A stretch of DNA of 5,066 nucleotides from a virus. Position numbers and translations under genes: made by a program. Positions 1 through 5,066 of the stretch are shown in pieces (position 1 is the first letter of the stretch; the number at the start of each line of letters is the position of its first letter). Below the pieces are notes generated by a model. It did no database searches, was not told where the DNA came from, and saw only the letters and a program-made list of their open reading frames with translations. Location of the stretch: IMG/VR virus record IMGVR_UViG_3300045988_041365; one strand, written 5' to 3'.

Positions 1-212
1 CGCTGATGAGCAGTATTAGACATCATCGCCTGCCAGTTTCGATTATTAGCGGCCTCATTTTGATTAAACATCATCGCTTTAGCATTTTGCTGCTCTTGCC
101 AATCACGCTGTATAGTAGCCTGCTGAGCAGACCAAGCATTATTTGCCTGAGCAACGCCCTGCATAGATGCAATCTGATCAGAAGCAGAATGAAGAGCCGA
201 GTTAATATCCAT
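1..212 (-). CDS. VP2: VP2 minor capsid / DNA pilot protein, N-terminal portion. It continues from the window end across the circular junction; 1..95 duplicates 4972..5066.
   Basis: The frame is continuous with ORF 4260..5045 through the terminal redundancy. Upstream of the track's ATG at 74 (=5045) the frame stays open to an ATG at 212..210. That ATG has AAGGAG 7 nt upstream (minus strand gaAAGGAGtgtatttATG). The ATG at 74 has no SD. The extended N-terminus reads MDINSALHSASDQIASMQGVAQANNAWSAQQATIQRDWQEQQNAKAMMFNQ... The full CDS is about 307 aa (4260..5183 in circular coordinates). Confidence 0.6.
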   Translation of the reverse strand, partial: MDINSALHSASDQIASMQGVAQANNAWSAQQATIQRDWQEQQNAKAMMFNQNEAANNRNWQAMMSNTAHQ

Positions 213-230
213 AAATACACTCCTTTCAAA

Positions 231-254
231 ATAGGGGGGCAACTGCCCCCCTAT
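231..254 (-). terminator. Intercistronic stem-loop between the VP1 stop and the VP2 start; possible partial terminator or attenuator.
   Basis: A 9-bp perfect stem atagggggg / cccccctat with loop caactg sits 3 nt after the VP1 TAA. On the mRNA strand it is followed by UUUUG and then the VP2 SD. Confidence 0.4.
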
Positions 255-257
255 AGA

Positions 258-1934
258 TTAGTGATGATCAATAAGACCGGGAATAGAATACATCGGCATA
301 GGCCGCGTTGCACGATTCTTGATGTAAATATCAGCAAAAAGCTGATTAGAGACAGTAGACTTAACAGCAAGGACACGGTCTACAGTATTCTTATCTTCAC
401 GAATCCAAGAAGCAGACAGAGCAGGGAGTTTGTCATAATCATCAGCAAGATGCCAAACATCGAGAGACTGAGCATAGGAAGAACGCATTTCACCGGTGAC
501 GCGGTTTGGCTTATATCGATAATCAGACCAAGCTTCCTGATAACCAAAAACCTCATCGTCAGCTTTAGTACCCTGAGCAAAAATTTCCTTGTTCTTGACA
601 GCCTGCTCACCAATATTAGCAAAAACAGGCCAGTAGAAATCAAAGCGCGTCTTACGCGACCAATGACGCTCAATACCCTGCTGGTAAGTATGATCATAAC
701 GGGCAACCATGACACCGATAATATAACCGTGCTCCGTAAAGCTCTTGATGAAATCAGCGTGAGAATCAGTGGTTTGAGACATACCAACAACAGTACCCTG
801 AGGAGTATCAGCACCAGCACCAGTACCAGACTGCTGTATAACCTGATTCACATTGATAGGAATACGATTGCCTCCAAGATATTCGGGACGCTGCAGACGG
901 GCGTCAGGAGAAGTAACGCCAAAATGAGACTTGAGAATCTCAATATAACGGGTACCACCGCGAGCATCACGCTCGTAAAGCTTCTGAATCTGAAAAGCCA
1001 TTCGCAGCTGGTTAATAGTAGCGACAATAGCATTACCAGAATTCAAAGCAAAAAGATTGGACGGAATTCCAGCGATAGAATTGTCAGTAGCAGGAGAAGT
1101 ACCATCGGCATAAAGGGCAGTAGAACCGCCAGACGAACCAGCACCATAACCAGCTTTCAACTGACCCTGAAAAATAGCATTACCAACACCTTTCCAACGT
1201 AAGGGAGTATTCAAATCCTGTCCAGTCAGAGCATATCCATCGAGCGGAACAACAGGAAGATTGCCCTGAGCGGCAACAGAAAGAGTTACATCAGGGCCTT
1301 TCTGAGGGCTGGGAAGACAGCTCGTGAAATAATCATGATACTTAGCAGCAATATAAGGCTTACCGCCTTTTGCAACATCTGAAATAAAAGTACCAGAATT
1401 AACACCCTGAACAGTAGCATCATCGACAGGAACAACGAGAGGATCCTGCAGATTCTGATCACGGAACCACTCATTCATGACGAGCGCATAAGCTCGAAAC
1501 GGAAGAGCACTAACAGAAATACCCTCAACACCAGTCGGAAGACCGAAATAATCAGCCAAAGTACCAACAGACCAGCCACCGGAAGGAGAAGTAATCTGCG
1601 GAATACTATACTCAGTTTGCGGAAGCCAAGCAGATTCCGTATTTTCTCCGTTAAACTCTTTCCAATGATTCCAAACAAGTCGATTCGGAACAAAGAAATA
1701 ATACGTATCCAGATAAACGTTATCCATCATAGGAGTAAGCAAAGTCTGCATACGTACTACTTTCGAAGAGGTAACATTGAAAGTGTCTCCGGGAAGGACT
1801 TCTTCGAGAAAGAAAGGGATAATGTCACCGACATTAAACGAAGTTTTAATAGAAGCCGAACGATCAAAAGTAGATCGACTCATATCAATTCGAGTCGGAT
1901 TTAAAGCAAAATGAGATTCAACATTACGATTCAC
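258..1934 (-). CDS. VP1: Major capsid protein VP1 (Microviridae F-protein family), 558 aa, GTG start.
   Basis: The N-terminus MNRNVESHFALNPTRIDMSRSTFDRSASIKTSFNVGDIIPFFLEEVLPGDTF matches the conserved gokushovirus VP1 start (..RS.FDRS..K..F..G.L.P....EVLPGDTF). The first in-frame start after a TAA is a GTG at 1934..1932, with GGAGG 9 nt upstream. This is the largest ORF in the window and ends at a TAA at 258..260. Confidence 0.9.
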   Translation of the reverse strand: MNRNVESHFALNPTRIDMSRSTFDRSASIKTSFNVGDIIPFFLEEVLPGDTFNVTSSKVVRMQTLLTPMMDNVYLDTYYFFVPNRLVWNHWKEFNGENTESAWLPQTEYSIPQITSPSGGWSVGTLADYFGLPTGVEGISVSALPFRAYALVMNEWFRDQNLQDPLVVPVDDATVQGVNSGTFISDVAKGGKPYIAAKYHDYFTSCLPSPQKGPDVTLSVAAQGNLPVVPLDGYALTGQDLNTPLRWKGVGNAIFQGQLKAGYGAGSSGGSTALYADGTSPATDNSIAGIPSNLFALNSGNAIVATINQLRMAFQIQKLYERDARGGTRYIEILKSHFGVTSPDARLQRPEYLGGNRIPINVNQVIQQSGTGAGADTPQGTVVGMSQTTDSHADFIKSFTEHGYIIGVMVARYDHTYQQGIERHWSRKTRFDFYWPVFANIGEQAVKNKEIFAQGTKADDEVFGYQEAWSDYRYKPNRVTGEMRSSYAQSLDVWHLADDYDKLPALSASWIREDKNTVDRVLAVKSTVSNQLFADIYIKNRATRPMPMYSIPGLIDHH

Positions 1935-2421
1935 TTACATTCACCTCCTGTTTCATTTCATGAACAACGGGCGCATCAACCTGCGGAGCATCGACCACAG
2001 AATGTTCGACCATGCCCAACTTCTCCAGCCAATCGTTAGATCCGGACTGGGATAGGAACTGCTCGAACGAACAATCAAACTTCTGCCGAACTTCCAGCGG
2101 CAACGACTTGAACATCTCTTCACATTCATTAATCCTATTAAGCGCATCGGCCATATTGGTCGGAAAATCGGTTACATCTGCATAAAAGCCCTGAGCACGG
2201 GAAAGGGCTTCAGTATCGCCATTGGCAAAACGGGCGAGAATAACGTTGATATCGACACTATCAGCAAAGGACTGAATATAAGCATAAAGATCTTCAGTGC
2301 CTTTTTCCTCAAGAACAACACGTCCATTTGCATCATAGCGACCGGAGTACAGCTGCTTAACGCGAGAACCAGAGCAAGGATGAATACGTTCACGCGGGGA
2401 ATACTGGGTTTTAAACTCCAT
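1924..2421 (-). CDS. VP3: Internal scaffolding protein VP3-like, 165 aa.
   Basis: The ATG at 2421 has AAGGAGG upstream. The protein MEFKTQYSPRERIHP...YSGRYDANGRVVLEEKG...LPLEVRQKFDCSFEQF resembles gokushovirus VP3 scaffold proteins, and its position immediately upstream of VP1 fits. Its stop overlaps the VP1 start by 11 nt. Confidence 0.7.
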   Translation of the reverse strand: MEFKTQYSPRERIHPCSGSRVKQLYSGRYDANGRVVLEEKGTEDLYAYIQSFADSVDINVILARFANGDTEALSRAQGFYADVTDFPTNMADALNRINECEEMFKSLPLEVRQKFDCSFEQFLSQSGSNDWLEKLGMVEHSVVDAPQVDAPVVHEMKQEVNVSES

Positions 2422-2620
2422 CTTTCAAATTAGCCTCCTTTAATTTAACATCATCAAAAGCAAAAGACTGATCGAGCATACGCTCATCAACGCTTCCATC
2501 CGGACGAGCAAAACGATCATAGACAATATCAAGGAGATCATCAATCAGATCAAGAAGCCGATCCTTGGAAAAAGTCTTGCGAACGAAAGCCACAAAAATA
2601 ACAAGAAGTTTATCCTTCAC
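2411..2620 (-). CDS. Small acidic hypothetical protein, about 69 aa, GTG start.
   Basis: A GTG at 2620..2618 is preceded by GGAGG with 9-nt spacing (tgcttcGGAGGtgttgcgccGTG). The product VKDKLLVIFVAFVRKTFSKDRLLDLIDDLLDIVYDRFARPDGSVDERMLDQSFAFDDVKLKEANLKDGV has mixed, non-repetitive composition, unlike the L-rich frame artefacts elsewhere. It fills an otherwise 190-nt gap in a compact genome. It overlaps the upstream ORF by 11 nt and VP3 by 11 nt, the same geometry as the VP3/VP1 junction. Confidence 0.5.
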   Translation of the reverse strand: MKDKLLVIFVAFVRKTFSKDRLLDLIDDLLDIVYDRFARPDGSVDERMLDQSFAFDDVKLKEANLKDGV

Positions 2621-2864
2621 GGCGCAACACCTCCGAAGCATCAGCAACAACAAAAGGAACAGGCAACACCTCACAGACACCAGAATCGGTATCAAACGAG
2701 GCCAACTTGAAGAGGGAAAAATCATTGGGATGAGAATTGAGCAAGGAATCAGGCTGATTAACAGCATGTTCGAAATTACGGAGAGCAGACGCATCATTAG
2801 CGTCAACAGTCGGGGTCATAAAACCAGTCTTTGCGTCCTTGATAGCATACATACCCAATTTCAT
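2610..2864 (-). CDS. Conserved-looking small protein, 84 aa; possibly the VP5-like nonstructural protein of gokushoviruses.
   Basis: The ATG at 2864 has GGAGG 9 nt upstream. Its ATGA start/stop overlap with the upstream J-like ORF indicates translational coupling. The protein is MKLGMYAIKDAKTGFMTPTVDANDASALRNFEHAVNQPDSLLNSHPNDFSLFKLASFDTDSG... No homology search was possible. Confidence 0.6.
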   Translation of the reverse strand: MKLGMYAIKDAKTGFMTPTVDANDASALRNFEHAVNQPDSLLNSHPNDFSLFKLASFDTDSGVCEVLPVPFVVADASEVLRREG

Positions 2865-2974
2865 AGTCTAATACCTCCACGAAAAATTTTAGGTGCAATG
2901 TTAATCTTTTTCGATTTTGCCGCAGTACGGCGGAAAATCTTGTTGTCAAGCTTGGGTGGATTTCTACGTCTCAT
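2861..2974 (-). CDS. Small basic DNA-binding protein, 37 aa; analogue of phiX174 J and of gokushovirus ORF8.
   Basis: Not in the supplied ORF track because it is under 60 aa. The ATG at 2974..2972 lies 1 nt after the Rep TGA and has AAGGAAG 7 nt upstream. Translation is MRRRNPPKLDNKIFRRTAAKSKKINIAPKIFRGGIRL. It is strongly basic (13 of 37 residues are K or R), and its hydrophobic C-terminal RGGIRL resembles the ...RGGIRF ending of Chlamydia-phage ORF8 (recalled, not searched). Its stop TGA overlaps the ATG of the next ORF as ATGA. Confidence 0.6.
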   Translation of the reverse strand: MRRRNPPKLDNKIFRRTAAKSKKINIAPKIFRGGIRL

Positions 2975-2975
2975 G

Positions 2976-3944
2976 TCACAACTTCCTTTCAAGAGATTTT
3001 ATCTTATCAGTCAAGGCTTGTTCCTCGACGGCAAGACGATCATATCTGTCCAAAGATGTACGAAAATCCTTGGCTTCCTCAGCAGCAGCAGCTAAACGAT
3101 GACGAACGGCTTTAGCCTGCTTCATCTCATCGGGATGATCAATGTCAAATAAACGATCATAATAACGAGGAGGACGAAACTTCAAACCACCAACATCAGT
3201 GCCAAGATTGATGTATTCATGCTGATACAAATCTGGATGATCATCATAATACTGACGAGCGATTCCGGGTTTCCGGGACATACGAACAAATTCCGGTACA
3301 AGATTCAAATCCGAATACAGAGAAGCATCCTGACCTTTAAGCTTTTTCATAACATATCGAGCAGTATAAGCGCAAGATTCCCAAGTTACGGCGCCGACCA
3401 CAACAAAGCCGAGACCCCAACACTCAGTAAGAGAATCACTAATGAAATAATCATAACCTTGGGGGGAACGTTTGTAGGGTCGCAGATCATCGAGAGACAA
3501 TCCAAAAATAATTGAGTGATAATGAGGGCGAGCAGTAGTAGAGCCATACTCGCCACAGGCAAAGTACCGAATGTGATCATCTGGGTGAGCCTTTCTTAAG
3601 CGTTTCCAAAACAATTCCAAATCACGAGGTCTTAGCGTCAAAGCAGGAGCAGCCTCCCCATCATCATTGATAGCATAAGCAGTACGAGGCACGTGATCGT
3701 CATCATAAGTCAACGTCACAAACCAAGATTCCTTATGATACTGTAGCTCAAGCATACAGCGGTTAGCCCATTGACGGCTATACTCGAGCCGGCAACCAAT
3801 ACATTGACCGCAGGGGAGCTGCAAGCGCTGCCACGAGGGATAGACCTCGCTGGCATGCTGGCCAGACAATATTTTGATATTGCGTTTTCCATTAGCTGTC
3901 CTTCCAGGGAGAATAACAGCTTCCAAAGGATGATAGCACGGCAT
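2976..3944 (-). CDS. VP4: Rolling-circle replication initiation protein VP4 (HUH endonuclease superfamily I; phiX174 gene A family), 322 aa.
   Basis: The protein starts MPCYHPLEAV. Motif I is FVTLTYD, the HUH motif is PHYHSIIFG, and the catalytic double tyrosine is AYTARYVMKK (YxxxY). The ATG at 3944 has an AGGTGAT SD. The stop is a TGA at 2978..2976. Confidence 0.9.
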   Translation of the reverse strand: MPCYHPLEAVILPGRTANGKRNIKILSGQHASEVYPSWQRLQLPCGQCIGCRLEYSRQWANRCMLELQYHKESWFVTLTYDDDHVPRTAYAINDDGEAAPALTLRPRDLELFWKRLRKAHPDDHIRYFACGEYGSTTARPHYHSIIFGLSLDDLRPYKRSPQGYDYFISDSLTECWGLGFVVVGAVTWESCAYTARYVMKKLKGQDASLYSDLNLVPEFVRMSRKPGIARQYYDDHPDLYQHEYINLGTDVGGLKFRPPRYYDRLFDIDHPDEMKQAKAVRHRLAAAAEEAKDFRTSLDRYDRLAVEEQALTDKIKSLERKL

Positions 3945-3949
3945 AACAT

Positions 3950-4070
3950 CACCTACTTTATTTATACTATATAGTATTTTTTATTTTTTTCAAGTATATA
4001 TTATATTTTTTATTATATTTTTTTTATTATTATACTAATCTATACTACTACAAGATAGGTATAGTTAGCG
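3950..4070 (-). promoter_or_regulatory. AT-rich putative promoter/operator region upstream of rep.
   Basis: About 85% A+T. On the mRNA strand TTGAAA lies at plus 3988..3993, followed 16-18 nt later by TATAGT/TAGTAT and then about 20 nt to the rep ATG. A 12-bp perfect palindrome TACTATATAGTA at 3965..3976 overlaps the -10 region. Three TATACTA copies lie at 3963, 4031 and 4041. The promoter assignment is inferential. Confidence 0.3.
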
Positions 4071-4090
4071 TGCTAATCTCCATCTTTGGT

Positions 4091-4154
4091 GTCACTCAGC
4101 ACAGTTACATCAAGAGAGTAACTGTGCTGAGTGACCGGCCGCGATACGCGGCCG
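4091..4154. repeat. Two adjacent stem-loops: an 18-bp perfect inverted repeat (4091..4108 / 4118..4135, loop 4109..4117) and an 8-bp all-GC hairpin (4136..4143 / 4147..4154, loop ata). Candidate replication-origin or primosome-assembly structures.
   Basis: gtcactcagcacagttac-atcaagaga-gtaactgtgctgagtgac is a perfect 18-bp stem. cggccgcg-ata-cgcggccg is an 8-bp GC stem. Both lie in the only sizeable non-coding region. Confidence 0.45.
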
Positions 4155-4195
4155 AGGTGATCAACGAAACTGCATACCATTTTGGCAAGGAGTGC

Positions 4196-4241
4196 AAAAA
4201 AGAAGCGGAGCTTGGCGCAGGGGCGCGACTCGCTTCGCTTC
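4196..4241 (-). terminator. Rho-independent terminator downstream of VP2, at the end of the polycistronic unit. It also reads as a hairpin plus T5 on the plus strand.
   Basis: The mRNA strand reads GAAGCG(aagc)GAG-tcGCGCccctGCGCcaag-CTCCGCTTC followed by TTTTTT, about 20 nt after the VP2 TAA. On the plus strand the same hairpin is followed by cctttttaaaaaag. Confidence 0.6.
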
Positions 4242-4259
4242 CTTTTTAAAAAAGAATTT

Positions 4260-5066
4260 TTACTTTTTGTAAAGACGGAACGTACCAGAAAAATCCTTGA
4301 AATACGTACGACCGTCAGAACCACGATACAAAACATCCTTATTACGACCAACACCAGAACCATATGCACCAGCAATAGGCGTAAAAGTCTTACGGCCTTG
4401 ATACTCACGATCATAACCAAAAGACCGACTACCAGACGAACCAGAAGACGAACCACCATAATTATTGTTGGTGGTAGTACCACCATTATAATTAAAAACA
4501 TCAGGCCGCCGAGCAGCAGCAGCGGCTACCATAGCAGCATCACGACCGGAAGCAATACCACGATCAGTAGCCATCTGGGCAACAGCAGTCGCAGCACGCT
4601 CAGCAATACCCGCCATATCAGACACAAAGCGTTTATCGCTGCCATAGCGAGAGGCTTCAGAAGACTTATCTGCACCATAGCGCGAGGCCTCAGCCTGAAT
4701 ATCGGCAACAATCCGAGACATAGCAGTATACTTGTCAGCGACAGCTTCCTGAGTACGAGCATTGATATTAGCGGCCTCAATCTGAGTATTGGCAGCAAGG
4801 ATAGAACCAAGCAAGTTTGCAATAGCACCGTTGGCAGACATATCAGTTTCACCTTTGGCACCTTGAGAGGTCACACCTTGAGCAGTTGCACCGGAACCGA
4901 CAGAAGCGCCGTTTCCATTCATAGCAGAAAGCACAGGGTTCAAACCAGCCGCCATCAAATCACGAACTTCACGCTGATGAGCAGTATTAGACATCATCGC
5001 CTGCCAGTTTCGATTATTAGCGGCCTCATTTTGATTAAACATCATCGCTTTAGCATTTTGCTGCTC
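4260..5066 (-). CDS. VP2: VP2 minor capsid / DNA pilot protein, C-terminal portion including the stop. It is truncated by the window edge and continues circularly into 1..212.
   Basis: The protein is Gly/Ser/Ala-rich, with a ...REVRDLMAAGLNPVLS... motif typical of gokushovirus VP2 and the C-terminal end ...GRTYFKDFSGTFRLYKK. The stop is a TAA at 4262..4260. It follows VP1 in the canonical order. An internal 33-nt imperfect tandem duplication encodes EASRYGADKSS / EASRYGSDKRF. Confidence 0.85.
   Translation of the reverse strand, partial: EQQNAKAMMFNQNEAANNRNWQAMMSNTAHQREVRDLMAAGLNPVLSAMNGNGASVGSGATAQGVTSQGAKGETDMSANGAIANLLGSILAANTQIEAANINARTQEAVADKYTAMSRIVADIQAEASRYGADKSSEASRYGSDKRFVSDMAGIAERAATAVAQMATDRGIASGRDAAMVAAAAARRPDVFNYNGGTTTNNNYGGSSSGSSGSRSFGYDREYQGRKTFTPIAGAYGSGVGRNKDVLYRGSDGRTYFKDFSGTFRLYKK
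4972..5066. repeat. Terminal redundancy: a 95-nt exact copy of positions 1..95. It marks linearisation of a circular 4,971-nt genome.
   Basis: Direct base-by-base comparison of the window start and end: cgctgatgagcagtattagacatcatcgcctgccagtttcg...ttgctgctc is identical at both ends. Confidence 0.95.

Follow-up and report, generated by a model that had tools for sequence, protein, structure and literature searches.

Gene content of the window and closure of the circle

We analyzed the 5,066-nt sequence of IMG/VR virus record IMGVR_UViG_3300045988_041365 (the whole stretch is called the window below), which is almost certainly the complete genome of a gokushovirus (Microviridae, Gokushovirinae in the broad sense) from a gut metagenome, closed as a circle of 4,971 nt. 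Its single non-coding spacer, 315 nt between VP2 and VP4, carries a hairpin that recurs across gokushoviruses and that we consider a candidate plus-strand replication origin. Seven genes occupy 93% of the sequence, all on the minus strand of the window, in the order VP4 (Rep), ORF8, VP5, orfX, VP3, VP1, and VP2. This coding strand contains 32.8% T; the packaged plus strand of phiX174 is similarly T-rich. The features are listed below in coding order, with the two copies of the terminal repeat last.

2976-3944, minus strand: VP4, rolling-circle replication initiator, 322 amino acids (Pfam REP_ORF2-G2P, 4e-18; phrog_942, 6.8e-131)
2861-2974, minus strand: ORF8, basic peptide of 37 amino acids, 13 of them K or R (phrog_10695 at 6e-7)
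2610-2864, minus strand: VP5 (ORF5 family), 84 amino acids (Pfam Phage_ORF5, 5.6e-26; phrog_1670, 7.5e-27)
2411-2620, minus strand: orfX, conserved protein of 69 amino acids; GTG at 2620 with GGAGG 9 nt upstream; overlaps VP5 and VP3 by 11 nt each
1924-2421, minus strand: VP3, internal scaffolding protein, 165 amino acids (Pfam Chlamy_scaf, 1.1e-38; phrog_1642, 4.8e-42); 11-nt overlap with the VP1 start
258-1934, minus strand: VP1, major capsid protein, 558 amino acids (Pfam Phage_F, 7.8e-167; phrog_514, 4.5e-230 over residues 1-558)
1043-1248, minus strand: hypervariable segment of VP1, approximately codons 229-297, where the blastn alignment to the nearest relative, MG945586, breaks
212 across the junction (4971) to 4260, minus strand: VP2, DNA pilot or minor capsid protein, 307 amino acids (phrog_5158, 5e-83)
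1-212, minus strand: 5' part of VP2; ATG at 212-210 preceded by AAGGAG; the frame resumes at 4971
4260-5066, minus strand: 3' part of VP2; stop codon TAA at 4262-4260
4196-4246, minus strand: terminator-like stem followed by six T residues, directly after the VP2 stop; putative function suggested by the fold and by the same sequence after VP2 in relatives
4136-4154, minus strand: small GC hairpin of 8 bp, CGGCCGCG-TAT-CGCGGCCG, directly 5' of the origin-like hairpin
4082-4136, minus strand: origin-like element, 55 nt, with a perfect 18-bp stem (4135-4118 with 4108-4091) and the loop TCTCTTGAT at 4117-4109
3966-3993, minus strand: putative promoter-like site, TTGAAA-16 nt-TATAGT, a 10/12 consensus match and the best sigma-70-like site of the window
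1-95, no strand: terminal overlap, copy 1, an assembly artefact of a circular molecule, within the VP2 coding sequence
4972-5066, no strand: terminal overlap, copy 2, 100% identical to 1-95

The exact identity of positions 1-95 to 4972-5066 leaves a non-redundant unit of 4,971 nt, a size within the ~4.2-6.5 kb of the small circular genomes of Microviridae. The repeat sits inside the VP2 reading frame and is an assembly overlap rather than a duplicated attachment (att) site. An identical 322-amino-acid VP4 was found on three further public contigs, ENA ERZ28575432 ("FENG15-1_SAMEA3136658", 5,219 nt), ENA ERZ1742825 (5,026 nt), and Logan ERR688565 (5,001 nt). By their names, these records probably stem from the human gut cohort of Feng et al. 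2015 (PRJEB7774, listed in PMC7062461). All three are the same 4,971-nt unit with 0-1 mismatch, broken at different points and with overlaps of their own of 248, 55, and 30 nt, respectively. Because these assemblies close at other points, the circularity of the genome does not depend on the 95-nt repeat.

The initial annotation had described the window as a circular replicon of about 4,971 nt with an exact 95-nt terminal repeat, all genes on one strand, and a VP2 that spans the artificial junction. The exact match and the three other assemblies confirm this description, the coding strand is the minus strand of the window, and a linear list of open reading frames (ORFs) indeed gives VP2 only 261 amino acids instead of 307. 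The proposed gene list (Rep/VP4, a J-like peptide, two small ORFs, VP3, VP1, and VP2) was recovered, with unambiguous Pfam and PHROG matches for the known families and with the refinement that the two small ORFs are VP5 and the clade-specific 69-codon orfX.

Placement among the gokushoviruses

The nearest GenBank record was Microviridae sp. isolate 4051-1801 (MG945586.1), from pig faeces in China, with 89.3% nucleotide identity over 95% of the genome. Two further genomes from pig faeces, MG945570.1 and MG945407.1, were 87.6-88.9% identical, and the three together span 89-95% coverage. The annotated order of MG945586.1, VP4-VP5-VP3-VP1-VP2, is that of the window, with which it is colinear over the whole circle, junction included. 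Protein identities to MG945586 were 93% for VP4, 97% for ORF8, 93% for VP5, 92% for VP3, 86% for VP1, and 86% for VP2 (85.5% over residues 1-304). The pig-faeces genomes share the hairpin, the terminator-like stem, and the AT-rich region with the window and are 39-107 nt shorter. The outer stem of their hairpin differs from that of the window through compensatory changes, and in MG945586 orfX has a 12-codon deletion. Only the VP1 segment at 1043-1248 lacks a nucleotide match to MG945586; it may be the surface insertion loop that forms the threefold protrusions of gokushovirus capsids. A nucleotide identity of 95% often separates virus species, and the window and the pig-faeces phages fall below it. 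As a genome, the window is thus ordinary, another member of a well-populated group, ~89% identical to phages already in GenBank.

VP1 matched 3,623 phage records. Over its full length, it was 39-46% identical to VP1 of Chp1, Chp2, phiMH2K, and SpV4, the Gokushovirinae of the International Committee on Taxonomy of Viruses (ICTV), which is the range found among those genera themselves; against phiX174 F, identity was 25% over only 72 amino acids. These values uphold the earlier reading of the window as gokushovirus-like rather than phiX-like. The set of proteins typical of Gokushovirinae is present, namely VP3 (Chlamy_scaf), VP5/ORF5, a basic ORF8, and the VP2 pilot protein; the four ICTV phages likewise have homologous VP1, VP3, VP5, and ORF8 and lack D, G, and E. 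Chp2 ORF4 is 34% identical to VP4 of the window. Gene order differs: Chp2 has VP1-VP2-VP3-ORF8-ORF4-ORF5, whereas in the window VP3 lies between VP5 and VP1, ORF8 follows VP4, and orfX is an additional gene. The hosts differ as well, the ICTV type phages infecting obligate intracellular bacteria and Spiroplasma, and the window probably gut Bacillota (see below).

The capsid and accessory genes of phiX174 (Bullavirinae) are otherwise very different from those of the window. A tblastn search of the genome with phiX174 D, G, E, J, C, K, and H gave no significant match, and no Pfam or PHROG match to the families of external scaffold D or spike G was found in the genome. The initial annotation had listed D, G, and H as absent; this holds for D and G, whereas H is a matter of naming, since VP2 matches pilot-protein PHROGs and would have the role of H. 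Those PHROGs include several families termed "pilot protein for DNA ejection," and the 307-amino-acid VP2 was also called as a gene in other assemblies. ORF8 shares IFRRTA and a C-terminal FRGGIR(L/F) (FRGGIRL in the window) with ORF8 of Chp1, Chp2, and phiMH2K, whose homologue is annotated as J-like, and was present in 79 of 81 related loci. By this likeness, we regard ORF8 as the gokushovirus counterpart of the phiX174 DNA-packaging protein J.

A conserved hairpin between VP2 and VP4

Folded as single-stranded DNA (ssDNA), the 315-nt spacer gave -52 kcal/mol, with z = -8.2 relative to shuffled sequences. In the 5' to 3' direction of the coding strand, it contains the stem with six T residues, the small GC hairpin, the 18-bp hairpin, an AT-rich promoter-like region, and the VP4 ribosome-binding site. 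The 18-bp hairpin belongs to the origin-like element at 4082-4136, whose loop, TCTCTTGAT, lies on the coding strand 165 nt upstream of VP4. The element has a 3' tail, GAGTGACACC, which ends at 4088; the conserved form of the tail is GTGACACC. An Rfam search of both strands at E <= 1 gave no match.

An 81-nt query found the element in 268 phage records; their sources were mammals, birds, insects, and a tunicate, and the DNA at the match was nearly always unannotated. The exact hairpin core occurred in 65 IMG/VR contigs. Among 30 distinct sequences selected by this core, five outer stem pairs covaried, with 44 double-change cells vs. 11 +/- 3 in shuffled alignments and 4-13 in slid ones. To avoid the circularity of selecting sequences by the hairpin itself, we picked 80 relatives by VP1 alone, most of them from one IMG dataset (3300045988) and only 12 with terminal repeats, and searched them with a covariance model. 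The hairpin was present in 64 of the 80, always on the VP1 strand and downstream of VP2; the other 16 are linear contigs broken within the spacer. In the 44 distinct sequences obtained, 99.6% of cells were paired, and compensatory change was seen in 9 of 12 pairs, for example CAGTTAC/GTAACTG to CCATTAC/GTAATGG. There were 83 double-change cells in this alignment vs. 20 +/- 3 in shuffled controls and a maximum of 18 in slid controls, a comparison in which fitting the alignment to the covariance model is a bias towards pairing. Two unpaired parts did not vary, namely CTTGAT at the 3' end of the loop and the tail A(G/C)TGACACC (GTGACACC).

The same plan was seen in three of the four ICTV type phages that we checked. 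Chp2 (L153, 2904-2950) has CTAGCGTATAACAG-TCTACTTGAT-CTGTTATACGCTAG-GTGATAGC; Chp1 (L156, 2750-2790) has the loop CCTCTTGGCT and the tail GAGCGACACA; and SpV4 (L155, 512-560), whose record annotates only VP1, has the loop ATTACTTGTTATA and the tail TTGACGACAG. Together with hundreds of other gokushoviruses, these give a general form in which the loop ends in CTTG(A/G/T)(T/C) and the 3' tail reads G.GAC.AC. In Chp1 and Chp2, non-coding DNA that separates VP3 from the ORF8/Rep block holds the element. Its position, after the last structural gene and before the ORF8/Rep block, is kept when gene order changes.

The VP2-VP4 spacer is also a recurrent assembly break point: contigs L073, L095, and L103 start, and L091 ends, exactly inside the hairpin, and many more break elsewhere in the spacer. 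In a prophage in a Christensenella metagenome-assembled genome (MAG), L003 (10170-10226), the hairpin scored best on the strand opposite VP1, with the loop CTTGTT, which might reflect inversion or decay of the hairpin in a prophage that is defective.

Candidate functions of the hairpin and its surroundings

The hairpin is predicted to be the plus-strand origin, nicked by VP4 between G4111 and A4110 of the minus (coding) strand. VP4 has an HUH motif (PHYHSIIF) and a two-tyrosine Y-x-x-x-Y motif (YTARYVMKK), as does phiX174 protein A, in which the counterparts are HFHAVHF and YVAKYVNKK; a BLASTP comparison of the two proteins (E 1e-5) aligned TLT, the HUH motif (HYH vs. HFH), and YxxxY. The loop TCTCTTGAT carries CTTG↓AT (the arrow marks the nick) on the plus strand, close to the rep gene. 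Origins of the pC194 type of rolling-circle replicon have the nick-site consensus CTTG↓AT(A). In phiX174 (NC_001422), the replication origin is annotated at 4306, within CAACTTG↓ATATTAATAACACTATAGACCACC, and a gapless overlay with the window hairpin shows (A)CTTGAT in both, with a GAC box 16-18 nt further 3'. Two features set the phiX174 site apart: it is part of gene A, and it is not represented as a hairpin, whereas in the window the site is non-coding and forms the loop of a 12-20-bp stem that covaries. We infer a VP4 nick at CTTG↓AT because of the Rep homology, the shared catalytic motif, the unpaired state of the invariant positions, and the match to the phiX174 site.

A wider proposition, which we put forward tentatively, is that 4082-4136 represents the plus-strand origin of essentially all gokushoviruses, the Chp2, Chp1, and SpV4 lineages included, that it is homologous to the phiX174 nick site, and that it has not been described as such. 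We found no description of this gokushovirus element in the searchable literature, an exact-sequence search included; older subscription papers could hold one. Several observations count against our interpretation. The likeness to the phiX174 origin is short (a 6-7-mer and a 3-4-nt box) and was spotted post hoc. With the covariance model, no match to the element came up in Chp1, Chp2, SpV4, phiMH2K, or phiX174; the versions in the first three were found by eye or with a simple hairpin scan, and that scan gave no convincing counterpart in phiMH2K. The ssDNA nature of the genome, the nick position, the promoter, and the terminator are all predictions from sequence.

Alternatively, instead of a plus-strand nick site, the hairpin could be a minus-strand origin that host primase or primosome recognizes, or a signal for packaging or transcription, which we think possible but somewhat unlikely. 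Phages with ssDNA require a structured site for priming of the complementary strand, and the element is strongly structured as ssDNA and is flanked by the convergent end and the start of the transcription unit. For hairpins of other microvirus clades, a priming role of this kind has been proposed (PMC9865509), and it is the main rival to a nick site. On the other hand, it is the unpaired CTTGAT and the 3' tail that are invariant, and not the sequence of the stem, a pattern that fits sequence-specific cleavage, and CTTGAT is the annotated phiX174 nick site. The neighboring small GC hairpin offers another candidate for priming. Two further points speak against the alternative: the hairpin has no T-run after it, and VP2 already has a stem of its own with six T residues. 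The roles of plus-strand origin and complementary-strand priming site are not mutually exclusive and may coexist.

The small GC hairpin could serve as a priming or termination signal. In most genomes (flanks of L007-L071), a GC-rich mini-hairpin was seen a few bases 5' of the origin-like hairpin, with a triloop that was often GTA, GAA, or TAT. The promoter-like site falls within an AT-rich stretch at ~3945-4070, upstream of VP4.

These elements suggest the following scheme. Transcription would start in the AT-rich region and end at the stem after VP2. VP4, as an HUH endonuclease with a phiX174 A-like YxxxY motif, would nick the plus strand in the hairpin loop at CTTG↓AT, where rolling-circle replication would start and end. 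The basic, J-like ORF8 would enter VP1/VP3 procapsids together with the DNA, and VP2 would pilot DNA delivery.

Integrated relatives, lifestyle, and probable host

The window appears to be a non-integrated form, and nothing in its sequence indicates lysogeny. Pfam and PHROG searches of the window found no integrase. A scan of the window for dif sites gave best scores of 16/28 (E. coli dif) and 17/28 (B. subtilis dif), the level obtained with block-shuffled sequence, the dif of the true host not having been identified.

Several relatives are integrated in bacterial DNA. In L160 (GCA_963622645.1, a 94-kb contig), VP4-ORF8-VP5-orfX-VP3-VP1-VP2-hairpin lies between an SLH-protein gene and ychF and is bounded by a 19-bp direct repeat, GGATATCGCATCCCCTTAG, at 7649-7667 and 12723-12741. 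The same seven genes occur in L162, again in the SLH-protein/ychF context, and L162 and L079 share the left context of L160. In circular relatives (L076, L080, and L084), this 19-bp core is found once, just upstream of VP4; it occurs in 12 related loci, and in L082 a 19-nt "terminal repeat" at both contig ends is the att core and not an assembly overlap. The candidate empty attB sequence of the integrated relatives is …TTCGGTGGATATCGCATCCCCTTAGGATTTTC…. These sister gokushoviruses, integrated in contigs of Bacillota MAGs, carry orfX but no phage integrase, and their VP1 is 81-83% identical where measured. L079, L123, L120, L106, and L149 are single phage copies with bacterial flanks, and a clade with 73% VP1 identity (L123, L120, L106, L149, and others) lies between SLH-protein genes and other bacterial genes. 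In L123 (1-2419 and 8858-10613), an SLH-domain protein gene flanks the prophage on both sides, as two copies in inverted orientation that are ~86% identical. Many of the 80 IMG/VR relatives include a stretch of this SLH-type bacterial flank, a few hundred bases long.

The Oscillibacter MAG locus L005 holds a prophage fragment in which the N-terminus of VP1 is 87% identical to residues 1-216 of the window VP1; its VP4 is only 55% identical to that of the window. Directly upstream of this prophage VP4, and divergent from it, is a full-length tyrosine recombinase gene (4742-5749, minus strand), with an IS3 transposase and an SLH/GH18 gene beyond. The recombinase may or may not belong to the phage.

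The integrated relatives show that some sister lineages are temperate by a route unlike the XerCD/dif route of enterogokushoviruses. The enterogokushovirus EC6098 has a 28-bp dif-like motif, integrates at dif through XerC/XerD, and encodes no integrase (Kirchberger and Ochman 2020, PMC7062461). Compared by its published description (PMC7062461), EC6098 resembles the window in lacking an integrase and in having a non-coding region next to VP4, that of EC6098 being located between VP2 and VP5. It differs in its dif-like motif, since the window has none above chance, and the integrated relatives of the window have the 19-bp core beside an SLH-protein gene instead.

Could the circle then be the excised or induced form of a temperate gokushovirus, that is, a prophage-derived contig? 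We consider this unlikely. The integrated L160 and L162, with the same seven genes including orfX and, in L160, the flanking GGATATCGCATCCCCTTAG, the bacterial flanks of L079, L123, L120, L106, and L149, and the tyrosine recombinase gene adjoining the 87%-identical VP1 N-terminus of L005 would all be in keeping with such an origin. The window itself, however, contains no match to the 19-bp core GGATATCGCATCCCCTTAG at <=3 mismatches, no dif-like motif above chance, and no integrase; all contigs with an identical VP4 are ~5 kb and circular; and the closest relatives, from pig faeces, were deposited as complete circular genomes. The initial annotation had left the choice between a free phage and a prophage-derived contig open; four closed circles without host DNA favor the free form, and the missing att core and dif motif speak against the prophage. 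It is very improbable that the window is a linear or integrated element with the 95-nt repeat as a true direct repeat, or a chimeric misassembly. Terminal repeats can be att duplications (as in L082), but here the VP2 frame crosses the junction to give a full-length VP2 colinear with that of relatives, one 4,971-nt unit results from four assemblies whose overlaps (95, 248, 55, and 30 nt) lie at different sites, and the whole circle is colinear with MG945586, which refutes the idea at the assembly level.

The genomic contexts suggest that the hosts of the wider group are SLH-bearing, Oscillospiraceae-like gut Bacillota. The hosts of the window are likely gut Bacillota of the Oscillospiraceae type, for which the evidence is circumstantial in the case of the window itself. 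This host assignment is weakened by its dependence on MAG bins and on mosaic relatives, such as L005 with its 55%-identical VP4.

orfX and the coding layout

orfX is a real gene, the seventh of the genome, and is under purifying selection. It is kept in 19 related genomes, and relatives use ATG at the position of the GTG codon of the window. Relative to 10 relatives, the ratio of nonsynonymous to synonymous substitution rates (dN/dS) was 0.10-0.31 in frame vs. 0.6-4 in the other two frames (for the part free of gene overlap), and substitutions were concentrated at third codon positions. A search of 5.8 billion proteins returned 110 clusters of homologues of 46-75 amino acids, nearly all on ~5-kb contigs and nearly all unnamed, with three labelled merely "hypothetical protein." The 69-amino-acid product was also predicted by independent gene callers in other assemblies. 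No PHROG family or Pfam match was found for orfX, and none of the 110 clusters has a Pfam domain. A short stretch at the N-terminus of the product is hydrophobic; other features are an acidic segment that resembles an amphipathic helix and a tail that is likewise acidic. An alternative start at ATG 2641 was rejected, as GTG 2620 has GGAGG upstream and aligns with the ATG of the relatives.

Shine-Dalgarno-like motifs lie 4-12 nt upstream of every chosen start, including the GTG codons of VP1 and orfX, whereas the ATGs at 1883 and 2641 have none. For VP1, homology and the ribosome-binding site (AGGAGG, 9 nt upstream) favor GTG 1934 over ATG 1883, which we rejected. The tight packing of the genes, with overlaps of 4-11 nt, suggests coupled translation. 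Within VP2, the 11-amino-acid motif (A/E)ASRYG(A/S)D, in the window (E)ASRYG(A/S)DK, is present in two copies (4620-4690). In relative L079 (7724-8101), there are ~10 tandem 33-nt copies of this motif, and VP2 length varies with repeat number in the clade.

Several other reading frames were discarded. The 48-codon ORF at 2803-2949 is interrupted by stop codons in relatives and is not a gene; the same is true of the 5' two-thirds of a 131-codon ORF at 2411-2806. The 398-codon plus-strand ORF at 6-1202 and other long antisense ORFs are shadow ORFs, broken at differing places in relatives. Antisense ORFs of 200-430 codons occur in every genome of the gut clade, and Chp1, Chp2, and phiMH2K have none of more than 110. 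They look like an effect of codon usage (few TTA, CTA, and TCA codons) rather than a gene.

Implications

As a genome, the window adds little to the thousands of gut gokushoviruses already deposited, and its sequence was already present, unannotated, in public assemblies. Its value is that of a clean circular reference for a gut clade, with corrected starts, a seventh conserved gene, and a parsed control region. It also carries a warning, in that a terminal repeat on a microvirus contig may be an assembly overlap, as in the window, but may also be an att core, as in L082. The evidence that sister lineages use a 19-bp core to lysogenize SLH-bearing gut Bacillota, and encode no integrase, widens the range of hosts and mechanisms known for temperate microviruses. 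The hairpin, conserved throughout the subfamily, is a candidate replication origin that could be tested directly in Chp2 or EC6098. If this role is correct, the hairpin, at the junction of the structural and replication modules, would be an anchor point of gokushovirus genome organization and a universal handle by which gokushovirus genomes could be oriented, circularized, and engineered.

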